Shown here: in pieces, positions 11,778 through 61,810 of the stretch | How the letters are laid out: each line of letters starts with the position of its first letter | Numbering within the stretch: the stretch's first letter is position 1 | Source of the DNA: an uncultured Acidobacteriaceae bacterium | GTDB lineage: Bacteria > Acidobacteriota > Terriglobia > Terriglobales > Acidobacteriaceae | Reading direction: 5' to 3' | Length of the DNA stretch: 64,000 nt | Assembly: GCA_963846795.1 (NCBI GenBank) | Contig: CAWJXJ010000010.1 | Coordinates: 35,673-99,672 of the forward strand | Translations under genes and position numbers: made by a program | The notes under the pieces: model-generated | Told to the model about the DNA's origin: nothing | Databases searched by the model: none | What the model saw: only the letters and a program-made list of their open reading frames with translations

Positions 11778-12976
11778 TGCTCACCTCCCTGGACTTTCTG
11801 TTGGAAGTAGATATATGGGTTGTCACGCGGCGCCGACACCATCTCCGGCACCGGATCCAGGCCAATGCCATCCAGAAACGCCGGCATTCCGATGCGCTGA
11901 ATCATCTCCCCCACTCGTTCCCGGTTCTTGCCGTACTCGTCCCAGAACTCCCAGATCCGCCCCACCAGCTCCTTGATCGTCTCTTCCAGCTCCGCGGCGG
12001 GAACGAACGGGATCAGCACCGACGACAGCAGCGCCCCCTGCATGATCGGCGCCTTGGCCCCGATCAAAAGCACCGCTCCCCGCTCTTTGCCCGGCCGCAG
12101 CGCCTTGGGCATCACGTTGATGCAGTGCATGCAATGCACGCATTCATGGTTCTGAATGCTCACCTGCTTGCCGTCCCACTGGAAACTCTTGGCGGGACAC
12201 ATCTCGCAGATCTCCTTCTGGATGTCCATCCCCGCCGCCACATACTTGGCCACTTCCGCCTGGTCCACCTGCATCTCGTCCTTCCAGGTGCCAATCACCG
12301 ACAGGTCGGCGCGCGCCGCCGAAGCCACGCAGTCATTGGGGCAGCCCGCACACTTGATCTTGAACTTGTAGGCGAAGGCCGGCCGGTGCAGCTCGTCCTG
12401 ATAGTTCATGGTCAGGTCGTAGCACAGCTTCATGGTGTCGTAGCAGGCCCACTCGCAACGCGCCTGCCCCACGCAGCACGACGGGGTGCGCAGGTCGGAG
12501 CCCGAGCCCCCCAGGTCAAAGCCGGCCTGCGCCAGCTCCTGGAAGGTCGGCTCCAGTTGGTCGGTCGTGGTGCCCAGCAGAATGACGTCGCCGGTCGAGC
12601 CGTGCATGTTGGTCAAGCCCGAGCCGTGTTTCTCCCAGATGTCGCAGATGGTGCGCAGCGCCTCGCTGGTGTAGAACCAGCCCGCGGGATGGTTGATGCG
12701 CATGGTATGGAAGTGCGCGATGTTAGGAAACTGCTCGCCCAGGTCGCTGTAGCGGCCAATGACGCCGCCGCCGTAGCCCAGCACCCCCACCAGGCCGCCA
12801 TGTTTCCAATGGCCTTTCTTCTCCTGGTAGGAGAGTTCCAGTTGTCCCAACAGGTCCTTGGGAGCATCACTGGTCTGGCAGGCAGACTTGATCTCTTTTA
12901 CGAAACTGGGCCAGGGGCCCTTCTCCAGCTCGTCCAGCAGCGCCGTCTTGGGCTTGCCGTTGCCTTCTTCCGCCAT
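11774..12976 (-). CDS. dsrA: Dissimilatory sulfite reductase alpha subunit.
   Basis: 400 aa. [25 protein letters not shown] and [13 protein letters not shown] motifs. RBS AAGGAGA. Confidence 0.95.
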
Positions 12977-45285: not shown

Positions 45286-45484
45286 AAATTTACGACGCGG
45301 AGAAGACGCCAACAGCATAGCACCGCAAGAGGCTGGCTTGATCCGGATTACGAATGTACTCAGTGCAGCAGCGGGGGTTGTGCATTCCGGCGGAGCGGAG
45401 TCATCCAAATACGGAACGACCCGCGCCGCCACGCATCCGCTGGCGCGAGGGCCTAGCCATTCCCAACCTCCACAGGCCCCGTAG

Positions 45485-46180
45485 GGCCGACTCAGCTTAG
45501 CCCAGTGCGCAGCGAAGCGGAGCGCTGGGTAGGGGCAGGATGACCATCGGAGCCCCAGCGGGGCTCCAAGGATTTACAGAACTCACCCAAATACGAATCG
45601 CGGATCGTATTCGAGTCCAGACTTCTTCAACAGCGTTAGAAACTCCTGCTCGAAGCTCCACGTCTTATGATGTTCCGCTTGTCCATCGATGTAATCGATA
45701 ACTACCTGGCGTTGCGATTGCGAAACGCTAAAGGCACCATAGCCCTCCTGCCATGAGAATCTGCATCCATGTTCGCCGATCCAGCGGGAACTGTGCGCCT
45801 TCAGGTCGCGCAATCCTGTCGAAAGGCACATGGCTGGAGAAATTCCGAGAAGAAGATGTACGTGATTCGTTGTACCGCCCGCAGCCATCAACAGTAGCTT
45901 CTTATCTCGAGCAACAACCCCCAAGTAGCGCCAGAGGGCCTCGGGATCCGGAATGTTGTCAGTCCGCCCCTTCGTGCTAAAGACGCAATGGACCAACATG
46001 GAGGAATAGGTGTGGGACATGCTTGCAGGGTACGGGAAGCGCCCATTGCGTTCGGTGATATCTGGCACAGTCCGGTGCTCAGCAAATCGCTCAGCGTAAG
46101 AGCCCCTACCGGGGCTCTGATTCATTGGCTACCTTACCCAGCGCTCCGCTTCGCTACGCGCTGGGCTAAGCTAAGTCGCC
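45485..46180. mobile_element. RayT (REP-associated tyrosine transposase) unit flanked by inverted REPs.
   Basis: Left REP 45485-45531 is the reverse complement of right REP 46135-46180 (TACCCAGCGCTCCGCTTCGCT.CGC.CTGGGCTAAGCT.AGTCG). Inner GC hairpins lie at 45549-45567 and 46099-46118. Confidence 0.8.
45583..46020 (-). CDS. rayT: IS200/IS605-like Y1 transposase of the REP-associated (RayT) type.
   Basis: MSHTYSSMLVHCVFSTKGR...NHVHLLLGI...SSRWI...WQEGYGAFSVS (HUH and Tyr regions). Confidence 0.85.
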   Translation of the reverse strand: MSHTYSSMLVHCVFSTKGRTDNIPDPEALWRYLGVVARDKKLLLMAAGGTTNHVHLLLGISPAMCLSTGLRDLKAHSSRWIGEHGCRFSWQEGYGAFSVSQSQRQVVIDYIDGQAEHHKTWSFEQEFLTLLKKSGLEYDPRFVFG

Positions 46181-46279
46181 CCTTCGGGGCTGTCGTAATC
46201 AAGCCCGTAACGCGATCCTTGCAGGCCGACAAGATGTTCTACCCAGGTTCTGCGCCAGCGTGGTGTCGCTTGGGATAAT

Positions 46280-50360: not shown

Positions 50361-50390
50361 CCGACAACCGACAACTGGCCACCGACAACT
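50361..50390. repeat. Heptanucleotide tandem repeat (CCGACAA type).
   Basis: CCGACAA CCGACAA CTGGCCA CCGACAA CT. Confidence 0.8.
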
Positions 50391-55644: not shown

Positions 55645-55968
55645 CTACTTTTGGTTCAGCGCGTCGATCTGATCCACCAGGGTCTCAATTTCCGAAGGCG
55701 TGAGTTTGCGGGTGTACTTCGGCATGAGGCCTTTGCCATTGTTAATAATATGATTCACATCGTTCTTGTTGGCCGCAGCAAGCTTTTCTGAAATGAGCGA
55801 TGATCCTAAGAAGTGCCGGCCCTTGGCATCCCGTCCGTGACATTTCGCGCATTGTTTCTGGTAAATCGGGTTGTCCGTCAGCTTTGCTTCCGGGCTTGAA
55901 TCCTGGGCAGTCGTCGCGATGGAAGCGGAGAAACAGAGGCAGGCTGCAATGAGTTGCGAAAGCTTCAA
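55645..55968 (-). CDS. Monoheme class I c-type cytochrome.
   Basis: CAKCHG motif. Signal peptide (M)KLSQLIAACLCFSASIATTAQ from a putative TTG start. Confidence 0.65.
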   Translation of the reverse strand: MKLSQLIAACLCFSASIATTAQDSSPEAKLTDNPIYQKQCAKCHGRDAKGRHFLGSSLISEKLAAANKNDVNHIINNGKGLMPKYTRKLTPSEIETLVDQIDALNQK

Positions 55969-56114
55969 GTTGACCTCGGACAACCTAAACCCAAACGGCC
56001 GGGCGTTGCCCAATATGATACCAGCGGGTACTCGTCGTTTGGCTGGCGATGAGAGCCGGGTCCTGCAGACGAAGCGTACACTGCTTTGCGTGTCGCCGGC
56101 TAAACCGGCTTCCA

Positions 56115-59100
56115 CTACAGCTTCACCCTTCGCAACCTCAACGCATTGGTAATTACCGACACGCTGCTGAAGCTCATAGCTGCGGCAGCGATGATGGGCG
56201 ACAAGAGCAGGCCGAACTTGGGATAGAGGATTCCGGCGGCGATGGGAACTCCGACCGAGTTGTAGACGAACGCGAAGAACAAATTCTGCTTGATGTTACG
56301 CATGACAGCGTGGCTCAGGTGACGGGCACGCACCAGCGCGCGCAGGTCTCCTTTGAGCAGCGTGATGCCGGCGCTCTCCATGGCAACGTCGGAGCCGGTC
56401 GCCATGGCGACGCCCACGTTGGCTTGCGCCAGCGCCGGAGCGTCGTTGATGCCGTCGCCCGCCATCGCCACCGTGCTCCCCTGCTGTTGCAGCCTCTTGA
56501 TGACGTCGGCTTTGTGATCGGGCAGCACACCGGCCTCGAAATCGCGGATGCCCAGCTTGCGCGCAACTGCTTGCGCGGTGGTCTGGTTGTCGCCGGTGAG
56601 CATGACGACGCGCAATCCCGCGCGCTGCAGATCGCGAACCGCTTCGGGCGCTTCGGGCTTGATGGGATCGGCAATGCCCAGCAGTCCTGAGGGTCGTCCG
56701 TCGATGACGGCGTAGACCACGGTCTGTCCATCGCGACGGAGTGCGTCGGCCTTTTCTCTTATGGAAGCGACGTCGAGACGCGACCGTTCGTCGTCCCAGG
56801 CTAGCCCAGAAGATGGGCGAACCTGGGGCACCTGGCGTTCCTCCAAGATCGCTGGCTCGATGATAGGGGTCCTTGGACTCCGTTCGGCTGCGCCTCATTG
56901 CGCTCAGGATGACGAGATTGATTTTTGTGCGTCTCGGCGGTTTGCTCCAGGAAAATTCCCAGTTCTTCCAATAGTCTGTCATTCCCCGCCGCGACTTCGT
57001 GTCCCCCAACCACACCGATGACGCCTTTGCCGGTGAGCGAACGGAAGCCATCGGGCGGAATCAGTCGCATGCCGTTGGCGAGCGCCGCGTCAACAATTGC
57101 CGCGCCCAGCGGATGCTCACTGCCACGCTCCAGGCTGGCCACCAGTTTGACGATGCTCTCTTCGGTCTCGCCGCTGAAGGCGACGACCTCTTGCAGTTCG
57201 GGCTTGCCCTGGGTGAGTGTGCCAGTTTTGTCGAGCACGATGGTCGTGACTTTGTCGAAGGTCTCAAGCGCTTCGGCGTTCTTGATGAGGATTCCGGCGC
57301 GCGCGGCGCGGCCAGTGCCGACCATAATCGCCATCGGCGTGGCGAGGCCAAGTGCGCAGGGACACGCGATGATGAGCACGGCTACGGCGTTCACGACAGC
57401 GTTAGCCAGTCGCGGCTCAGGCCCACGCAGCAACCACACAAAGAACGTGATGACGGAGATCGTCAGCACGGTGGGAACGAAGAATGCGGCGACACGATCG
57501 GCGAGGCGTTGAATGGGCGCGCGGCTGCGTTGCGCGGCACTCACCATCTGCACAATTTGCGCCAGCATGGTGTCGCTACCCACGCGTTCGGCGCGCATCA
57601 GCAGCCATCCCGTAGCGTTCACGGTTGCGCCGATCACTTTGTCGCCCATACGCTTCTCGACCGGCATGGGCTCGCCGGTAATCATCGATTCATCGACCGC
57701 GCTAAGGCCGTCGATCACGGTGCCGTCAGTCGGAATCTTTTCGCCGGGCCGCACCCGCAACTTGTCGCCGACCTTCACCTGATCGAGTGGGACGTCGTAT
57801 TCGCTGCCGTCGTCGCGCATGATGCGCGCCAGCTTGGGCGAGAGATCAAGCAGCGCGCGAATGGCTGAGCCGGTGCGACTGCGCGCTTTGAGTTCCAAGA
57901 CCTGGCCGAGCAGCACCAGCGCGATGATCGCGGCTGCGGCTTCGAAGTAGACCTCCGGCTGGCCGCCGTGCGTGCGCATGGTGTCGGGAAAAATCTGCGG
58001 CAGCAGCGTCGCCACCGCGCTATAGATGTACGCCACGCCGACGCCCAGCGCGATGAGCGTGAACATGTTCGGGCTGCGATGCTTCACCGAGGCCCATCCG
58101 CGCTGGAAGAACGGCCATCCTGCCCATAAGACAACGGGCGTCGCGAGCAGAAACTCGATCCACGTCGCTGCGCGCGGCGAGACAACGTGCATGAGCGGTC
58201 CCATGCGAAGCATTGCAAGAGCCACCAGCGGCACGCCGAGAATGATGCTCCACCAGAAGCGGCGCGTCATGTCGCGCAGCTCGGGATTCTCTTCCTCGGC
58301 TGCGGCCACCGTGCGCGGCTCCAGCGCCATGCCGCAGATGGGACAGAAGCCCGGCTGCGAGCGCACGATTTCGGGATGCATGGGGCAGGTCCACTCGGTG
58401 CGAGTGGCGGGCGCGAGTGGAGTCTCGGGTTCCAACGCCATGCCGCACTTGGGACAGGGTACGGGCTTGGTCTCGCGCACCTCCGGACACATGGGGCAGA
58501 CCCAGACGGTCCCCGCCGCTGACGGAGGAGCGGGAGGGGCAGCTGCTTTCGTGCCTGCCGGAGCGAGATACTTTTCGGGGCTCGCCCCTGAACTTCTCTG
58601 CACAGCCGCGGCAGCAGAAGTAGTAGGTCGTGCCTTTGTGGGCAAACGTTGCGGCCGCTTTCGCCGGATCGACATTCATGCCGCAGACCGGATCGCGCTG
58701 CGGCTTGGGAGCTGTCATCGGCTGCCCGAATCCGCCGATGCTCACCATCTGAGGCTTGTGCGACATGCCTCCGGGGCTGTAGCTCGGGGCCAGATATTTC
58801 TGCGGATCGGACTTGAATTTCTCGGCGCAGCCCTTGCAGCAGAAGTGATAGAGCTTGTGTTCGTACTCAACGCTCGCCGCGGCATTCGCGGGATCGACGT
58901 TCATGCCGCAGACTGGATCGCGATCGATCTTGCAGCTGGCGCCGATCTGGACGGTGGCTTCGCTGGACATGCCTCCGGGCTTGTATGAGGCCGATAAGTA
59001 TTTCCCGGGATCGGAGACGAATTTGTGCATGCATCCCGGCGAACAGAAGTAATAGGATTCGCCCTGGTGCTGCGCCCGCCCGCGCGCCTGCGCCGGATCG

Positions 59101-59174
59101 ACGCTCATACCGCAGACGGGGTCGTGGATTGCTGAGGGCGCGGGAACCTGCTGATTTGTTTCGGTGTCGCTCAT
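56115..59174 (-). pseudogene. copA: Copper-translocating P1B-type ATPase with an extended metal-binding N-terminus, disrupted twice.
   Basis: Fragments 58020..59174, 56801..58675 and 56115..56846 together give 3x YHS/TRASH (DPVCGM..YYFC..GC..KF), 2x CPM.PE...CP.CGMALE, CPC ([13 protein letters not shown]), DKTGTLT and [10 protein letters not shown]. The lesions are an extra G in the G4 run at 58577-58580 and a 128-bp insertion at 56788-56915. Confidence 0.8.
56788..56915 (-). mobile_element. 128-bp MITE-like insertion inside copA.
   Basis: Sense-strand ends are TCGTCATCCTGAGCG...CTGGGACGACGA (imperfect TIR). Deleting exactly these 128 nt restores one frame: ...THKNQS|[24 protein letters not shown]. 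Confidence 0.65.
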
Positions 59175-59230: not shown

Positions 59231-59458
59231 ATGACGAGTGTGGAAGTGATGTTCCGCTATGGCTTGCCGCCGGGTGAGACCGAAATGACCGCCATGGGCC
59301 AATTCAACGATGTTTACGGAATCCGGCGAGTGCGGATGAACGAAAAAGAGAAGACCATTCTTATCGAGTACGACGCAACGCGCCTGACGGAGACAGCTGT
59401 CGAGAAGTTGCTGCGGAGCGCTGGAATCGACATCCGCGAAAAGCTGGCGCTGGCTTAG
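59231..59458 (+). CDS. Small hypothetical protein divergent from copA (HMA-like tail, no CxxC).
   Basis: 75 aa: MTSVEVMFRYGLPPGE...KTILIEYDATRLTETAVEKLLRSAGIDI. Confidence 0.45.
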   Translation: MTSVEVMFRYGLPPGETEMTAMGQFNDVYGIRRVRMNEKEKTILIEYDATRLTETAVEKLLRSAGIDIREKLALA

Positions 59459-59854: not shown

Positions 59855-59980
59855 TTGTCATCACGAGCGGAGCGAGGGATCTGTTCTCTGGTCGATAGTT
59901 GCAGGATTGTCGCGCTGGGAAGTCTTGCATGCAACAAACAAGAGCAGATCCCTCACGCCAAGAGGCGCTCGTGATGACAA
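59855..59980. mobile_element. 126-bp MITE-like palindromic element.
   Basis: Perfect 15-bp termini (TTGTCATCACGAGCG / CGCTCGTGATGACAA) plus an inner 10-bp inverted repeat (GAGGGATCTG / CAGATCCCTC). Confidence 0.7.
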
Positions 59981-60000: not shown

Positions 60001-60031
60001 CTGACAACCGACAACTGACAACCGACAACTG
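60001..60031. repeat. Heptanucleotide tandem repeat (CYGACAA type).
   Basis: CTGACAA CCGACAA CTGACAA CCGACAA CTG, ending 5 nt beyond the stop of the minus-strand M28 gene. Confidence 0.85.
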
Positions 60032-61712: not shown

Positions 61713-61810
61713 ATTGCGGCTGATCGCCTGAAAGTTGGTGGCTGATTCTCGCTGCCGTAGCTACCCGGAACGATCCGTAGAGCAACCACACGTCTGGATG
61801 ACGCCGGCTG

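Follow-up and report, generated by a model that had tools for sequence, protein, structure and literature searches.

The copA locus and its predicted product

We analysed a 64-kb stretch of DNA (64,000 nucleotides (nt) of contig CAWJXJ010000010.1, from an uncultured Acidobacteriaceae bacterium), referred to here as the window, in which positions 56115..59174 of the minus strand hold a copA-like gene for a Cu(I) P1B-type ATPase. As assembled, this gene lies in three reading frames. The list of open reading frames (ORFs) contains minus-strand pieces at 58020-59174, 56801-58675 and 56115-56846 that tile a P-type ATPase, and a first-pass annotation of this DNA had proposed that these three fragments reconstruct a CopA-type P1B ATPase interrupted by two lesions. 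The Pfam matches, the motifs and the match to Legionella CopA (3RFU) given below all agree with that reconstruction. Deletion of a single base from the run spanning 58577-58580 (lesion 1) together with the 128 nt at 56788-56915 (lesion 2) restores a single open frame of 976 amino acids (aa), as the annotation had stated, and its arithmetic that 3060 = 3n was also correct. The reconstructed frame has no other stops, and its catalytic motifs are all intact.

Pfam analysis of the 976-aa frame returned E1-E2_ATPase (PF00122, 8e-59), Hydrolase (HAD) (PF00702, 2.5e-35), three YHS domains, and HMBD (2.5e-21) in two stretches. The motifs TGEP, CPC (CPCALG), DKTGT, SEHPL, GDGIND, YN (YNSVG) and MSFSS were all located. 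The reconstructed protein thus has the P1B-1 core, with an actuator domain carrying TGE and a HAD-type phosphorylation (P) domain carrying DKTGT and GDGxND, and the P1B-1 metal-site signature, with CPC in transmembrane helix (TM) 4, YN in TM5 and MxxSS in TM6; CPCALG, YNSVG and MSFSS are invariant in the homologs. The CPC/YN/MxxSS signature is the mark of Cu(I) specificity in the P1B family. The nucleotide-binding (N) and P domains match those of Legionella CopA in 3RFU with an E-value of 4.7e-44. Like CopA of Legionella pneumophila (LpCopA, 3RFU) and of Archaeoglobus fulgidus (2B8E, 3A1C), the protein has a P1B-1 core with CPC, YN, MxxSS, DKTGT and SEHPL, but unlike them it carries YHS/TRASH and HMBD domains at the N-terminus in place of ferredoxin-like HMA domains.

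The N-terminal part of the gene, on the minus strand, encodes YHS/TRASH domain 1 (58995..59123), domain 2 (58791..58919) and domain 3 (58565..58694), each placed by the Pfam YHS match and by motif coordinates, followed by two HMBD (CPMxPE...CPxCGM) metal-binding domains at 58322..58498. Domain 2 belongs to the direct repeat family D2, with a spacing of 225/204 nt, and domain 3 holds lesion 1. The first-pass annotation had recognized the three YHS/TRASH and two HMBD domains correctly and had called the arrangement unusual. A homolog search returned at least 8000 candidates, the best 120 of which (about 900-1060 aa) were examined. Nearly all of these 120 have the same Pfam set, and many are named as proteins of Korobacteraceae metagenome-assembled genomes (MAGs). 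Three YHS with two HMBD domains were found in 52 of the 120, two YHS with two HMBD domains in 54, and four YHS motifs in one. Judged from these homologs, the N-terminus is ordinary for its clade. In the sequencing data described below, the X11 and X5 contigs step back by 101 nt at 58660-58760, with 124 other letters between, which fits strains that hold one extra 225-nt YHS repeat. We consider it likely that the locus encodes a normal P1B ATPase of the CopA type, predicted to export Cu(I), and that it belongs to a Korobacteraceae-like acidobacterium from soil.

Alleles at the two frame breaks

The alleles at the two lesions were read from Logan contigs of sequencing runs that hold the stretch, all of them soil metagenomes (contigs X1 to X5 and X10 to X12 below), and from two sibling assemblies, namely L001, a contig of an NCBI MAG, and L002, a contig of an ENA assembly with Flye-style contig names. 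Logan contigs lose rare variants, and they show the presence of an allele and not its absence. Compared with the window over 7.5 kb (L001) and 11.7 kb (L002), the sibling contigs show 99.4-99.5% identity, and across these lengths indels relative to the window occur only at the lesion sites, plus one at 61717.

Lesion 1 lies at 58577..58583, where the run GGGG at 58577-58580 on the plus strand is CCCC on the coding strand and the window reads GAGCCCC (7 nt) in the coding direction. Two in-frame 6-nt alleles were observed at this site: GAGCCC (58577 omitted; encoding RGEPEK) in L001, X3 and X10, and GGCCCC (58582 omitted; encoding RGGPEK) in X1, X2, X4 and X5. The 7-nt form of the window combines the A seen in one allele with the fourth C seen in the other, and is out of frame. 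It was found in the window and in L002 but in none of the seven soil runs (Logan contigs), and L001 has one C fewer than the window here. An extra base in the neighbouring AAAA run would also restore the frame (GAGCCCCGAAAG), but this placement was rejected, since the observed alleles differ in GAG/CCCC. When a 63-nt stretch around lesion 1 was used as the query against sequencing runs, none was listed.

Lesion 2 has the same structure. The allele-variable spacer at 56832..56865 (minus strand) separates two repeat units in the insert, and here the 5' part of one allele is joined to the 3' part of another. Allele A is an insert of 114 nt (38 aa, in frame), present in L001, L002, X1, X2 and X4; allele B is an insert of 126 nt (42 aa, in frame), present in X10, X11, X12 and X5, and corresponds to the window sequence without 56860-56861 and with the change G>C at 56875. 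Both lengths are 3n, and both alleles translate straight through. The insert of the window consists of the 5' part of allele A (CTATCATC, with G at 56875) and the 3' part of allele B (GAGCCAGCGATCTTGGAGGAACGCCAG), and because of this junction it is 128 nt long and out of frame; this form was seen in the window only. Neither lesion was present in any short-read contig covering its site, and L001 encodes an intact protein of 1014 aa (P0001), insert included. These alleles and their reading frames are direct observations. Over 2.4 kb, the only differences between the window and the contigs of X1 (depth about 20) are one single-nucleotide polymorphism (SNP) and the two lesion sites.

The first-pass annotation had concluded that copA is inactivated, and had named read-level verification of the G-run and of the insertion as the test that could refute this. 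The test was well chosen, and its outcome in the Logan contigs of seven soil runs and in L001 goes against inactivation, as the short-read contigs and L001 are in frame at the run and the insert is in frame at 114 or 126 nt. Inactivation of copA is not demonstrated, and the gene is probably not dead.

Each of the two breaks sits at a multi-allelic indel site and mixes two in-frame alleles, and for this reason both are most likely consensus errors. The breaks of the window fall precisely at the points where compensating indels distinguish two in-frame haplotypes, with a mixture of the two at each site, and a column-wise consensus or polishing step across mixed strains yields such mosaics within a few nucleotides, whereas two genuine crossovers or mutations would give rise to both mosaics very rarely. 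The close match to the X1 contigs and the near-absence of other indels against L001 and L002 also support such an error, as does the origin of the data. The sibling contig names (contig_NNNN, _np1212) and the MFD MAG titles point to Flye/nanopore assemblies, and Nextera adapters at the ends of the X12 contigs show that there are Illumina data in study P1. We therefore infer that the two frame breaks are quite probably not mutations but errors of consensus building or polishing, made when a metagenome with co-existing strains was assembled from long reads. For the reading as a whole, in which a working pump with a translated, repeat-derived loop was broken up by assembly mix-ups of two in-frame haplotypes, our confidence is good but slightly lower.

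The chief alternative is that at least one frame break is real in the MAG strain, in which case copA would be a recent pseudogene, perhaps backed by a paralog, while sister strains keep the gene intact. Several observations weigh on this side and against consensus errors. L002, a second and separately assembled long-read contig, holds the lesion-1 form of the window, which could make this form a genuine allele rather than an error. Apart from these sites, very few indels separate the window from its siblings, so that it is not a generally error-ridden assembly. Since Logan contigs lose rare variants and show presence rather than absence, a minor frameshifted strain may exist. On the other hand, each lesion is an exact mix of two alleles that are themselves in frame, confined to a few nucleotides, a result that recombination or mutation would rarely give once, let alone twice in one gene; the nearly identical X1 strain (one SNP in 2.4 kb, at a depth of about 20) keeps the frame at each of them; and the catalytic motifs are all intact with no further stops. 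We regard a real pseudogene as unlikely, but its probability is not negligible. For annotation, two "pseudogenising" lesions of a long-read MAG that are multi-allelic indel sites and are gone in short-read data give reason for caution, and pseudogene calls in long-read MAGs need checks at the haplotype level.

The insert and the loop that holds it

The insert lies in the nucleotide-binding domain, between a strand/short helix and a helix. In the alignment to 3RFU, a stretch of 57 residues, from IFLEQ... to ...SRLD, takes the place of residues 517-518 of LpCopA, which is a further difference from that protein. In the AlphaFold (AF2) model of P0001, residues 745-789 are coil with a predicted local distance difference test score (pLDDT) below 50, and the flanks are near 90. 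The model predicts that the insert occupies a disordered surface loop and is compatible with the fold. In the natural population the insert would then be read in frame as a disordered loop of 38 aa (114 nt) or 42 aa (126 nt), and the loop-bearing pump is presumably active.

The same loop has been used many times. In-frame modules of the HPERSE type and/or the VPxVxPSxG(L/K)xW type were found there in about 20 of the 30 closest orthologs, and in the remaining ones the loop has 7 or 11 residues. In P0009, a 29-aa module (RVPHPFPSVGKGWDDEPSxQNVTSVKDEA) is present three times in tandem and in frame at residues about 700-790, P0013 and P0024 each have two different hairpin types, and in the loop of P0027 two HPERSE units stand between a first and a second hairpin. 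This recurrent use of the loop is observed directly. In a tree built without the loop, the long loops are basal and interspersed with short ones, and a separate clade of about 70% identity (P0102, P0115 and P0119) has its own inserts, which it would have gained independently. From these comparisons, the loop is a permissive site that has been repeatedly colonised, remodelled and trimmed.

A stronger reading of the same loop is that selection maintains it, across soil Acidobacteria, as a landing pad for palindromic repeats that are translated, with the 38- and 42-aa alleles co-existing, that variation in length or frame there and at the third YHS domain tunes or switches copper export, and that the mosaic of the window is a real, recurrent state of the population; we consider this improbable. 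Still less credible is a genuine on/off switch of copA, operated through the out-of-frame states by indel slippage, allele exchange or ribosomal frameshifting: both sites are length-polymorphic in the population and one lies within a short C/G run, but the runs are just 4 nt, every natural allele observed is in frame, a +1 shift as well as a +2 shift would be required, and no slippery site or stimulatory structure is evident, none having been specifically examined.

The insert itself is made of two repeat units, a 48-nt "GTCATCCTGAGCG...GAAGGACCCC" unit and a 38-nt "GTGCCCCA-stem-loop-stem-TGGGA" hairpin unit, joined by the short variable spacer. The left unit (GTCATCCTGAGCG..GAGGCGCAGCCGAACGGAGTCCAAGGACCCC, 56866..56913, minus strand) is translated as (R) plus 15 residues and is a copy of the 48-nt repeat (T)GTCATCCTGAGCGnAGnGAGGCGCAGCCGAACGGAGTCGAAGGACCCC. 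Its 21-nt core was found in 43 metagenome contigs representing 37 distinct contexts, about 33 of which have the flanking unit and the rest the core only. In about half of the contexts there is no open frame of at least 450 nt across the unit, a count that refers to open frames only and not to gene calls. One copy of the left unit forms a full palindrome (L010), and after one other copy (L021) comes a GTGCCC hairpin, as in copA. The X11 and X5 contigs agree with the window over 56881-56913 and diverge at 56913.

The right unit (56794..56831, minus strand; inverted repeat I1) is the hairpin GTGCCCCAGGTTCGCCCA-TCTTC-TGGGCTAGCCTGGGA, translated as 12 residues, and its stem-loop was present in every fold of the insert. 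An exact 25-mer of this unit is found in frame in a DUF1015-like ORF (L006 and L008), between genes (L009), and in the copA ortholog L007. A scan of genome contigs with the hairpin 25-mer returned four other MFD MAGs, and the window's own genome was not returned. The DUF1015-like ORF holds the unit in frame at about 400-470 in L006 and about 1840-1910 in L008, which are from two MFD acidobacterial MAGs. The dispersal of both units is thus seen directly. A raised depth of hairpin words in X10 was not used as proof of multiple copies in the window's own genome, since the copA loops of related species explain it equally well. In the DNA of L003 and L004, orthologs of 83-87% identity, the right half is in frame and has conserved ends, and the stems differ yet still pair (CCCATCCTTTCCC/GGGAAAGGGTGGG versus CCCAGGTTCGCCCA/TGGGCTAGCCTGGG). 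Since the right half is kept in frame in orthologs of this identity, it is old.

The first-pass annotation had described the insert as a 128-bp MITE (miniature inverted-repeat transposable element) with imperfect terminal inverted repeats. The derivation from dispersed repeat DNA stood, as both halves come from dispersed repeat families, but there are no convincing inverted repeats, no target duplication and no precise empty site. About 5 bp pair at the termini (TCGTC...GACGA), and the fold of the whole insert has a z-score of about -0.9 (-0.8 to -1.0 against shuffles for the 114-, 126- and 128-nt forms), so the reading of the insert as one long palindrome was rejected by folding. No direct repeat flanks the insert, and a BLAST search found no second copy of the 128-nt insert in the 64-kb window. 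The clean excision at 56788/56915 did not hold up either. Insert-free orthologs join ...GIL|(D/E)LD... and also lack the 13 flanking residues and RSRLDV, and among the orthologs compared the natural empty sites match none of the 56788/56915 boundaries. A recent transposition of such a MITE into an intact copA, from which it could be excised precisely, would account for the restored frame upon removal of exactly 128 nt, for the pairing ends and for the two repeat families, but with 114 or 126 nt in frame in the siblings, an old right half in frame in L003 and L004, different boundaries in the insert-free orthologs, no target-site duplication and no second copy in the 64 kb, it is very hard to sustain. 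The comparisons indicate instead that the insert is a translated, lineage-variable loop derived from dispersed repeats, and not a recent, cleanly excisable MITE.

Relation to known repeats and neighbouring features

Rickettsia palindromic elements (RPEs; Ogata et al. 2000) are dispersed hairpin repeats that occur between genes and in unrelated genes, and inside genes they survive only when in frame and within loops, where they contribute a peptide at the surface and leave the fold intact (PMC10969869, PMC3733652). As with RPEs, the hairpin unit of copA also occurs in a spacer and in a DUF1015-like gene, the insert does not disturb the frame of intact host genes (P0001 and about 20 orthologs), and it lies in a predicted surface loop. 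Unlike RPEs, its host is a free-living soil acidobacterium and not an obligate intracellular alphaproteobacterium, the copA units, at 38 and 48 nt, are shorter than RPEs (about 100-150 nt) and can be combined like modules, a single loop within a single protein family is recolonised repeatedly with tandem copies and allelic length variants, and there is no sequence similarity between the copA units and RPEs. By analogy, the behaviour of the copA insert appears to match that of RPEs and of other intragenic REP/MITE cases (REP, repetitive extragenic palindrome).

REP/REPIN sequences and palindromic repeats tagged with CGTC/GTAG have been described by Di Nocera et al. 2013 (PMC3733652). The copA units resemble them in being small GC-rich stem-loops with conserved unpaired ends, dispersed, sometimes intragenic, and grouped in families with differing stems; a Y1 (IS200-like) transposase with 59-nt inverted repeats, to which they may or may not be linked, is also present in the same window. 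Unlike REP/REPIN sequences, the copA hairpin starts with GTGCCCCA, ends with TGGGA and bears neither a clear GTAG tag nor a clear CGTC tag, and the inverted repeats flanking the Y1 transposase resemble neither copA unit. This transposase locus spans 45476-46190, with the IS200-like Y1 gene at 45583-46125 on the minus strand (180 aa, PF01797, 3e-16) between 59-nt inverted repeats that are 90% complementary. It resembles the tyrosine transposases flanked by terminal inverted repeats that have been reported for Acidobacteria (PMC3733652).

Bacterial MITEs such as Correia, ERIC and QMITE are non-coding repeats shorter than 300 nt for which in-frame fusions are possible (PMC10969869). As with MITEs, a relative that is truly palindromic, its 14-nt ends being perfect, lies 700 nt upstream, at 59857-59980; unlike MITEs, the copA insert is a half-element plus a hairpin and not a complete element. 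The palindrome at 59857-59980 is intergenic and 124 nt long, lies between a 75-aa ORF and a peptidase M28 gene, and has a fold z of -4.26; its ends (TGTCATCACGAGCG / CGCTCGTGATGACA) resemble the left unit of copA.

The copA locus reveals no new kind of system and is of modest interest as such, with an ordinary copper pump, a strain-variable loop and two probable consensus errors. It does offer a clear case in which dispersed hairpin repeats are translated as part of an essential-type enzyme, here in a free-living bacterium, with the same CopA loop reused across many lineages in tandem copies and allelic variants, and it extends the picture of selfish DNA in coding genes drawn from Rickettsia. 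The loop variants also form a natural series for probing how P-type ATPases tolerate insertions.

Downstream of copA, a cytochrome c gene with a Cytochrome_CBB3 domain (55645..56115, minus strand; ORF and Pfam) abuts the copA stop codon, and the same arrangement is found in L001 and L002. On the other side, a divergent 75-aa ORF (59231..59458, plus strand) stands at the same position in L001-L005 and is not part of the lesions. It lacks a CxxC motif and matches HMA_2 only weakly (E 0.0024), short of the curated cutoff; it may encode a small partner or regulator linked to copper. Elsewhere in the window, runs of GACAACC/GACAACT heptamers occur near gene ends at 50363-50390 and 60003-60030, and positions 1-300 and 12440-12739 form a direct repeat that is 100% identical over a distance of 12.4 kb.

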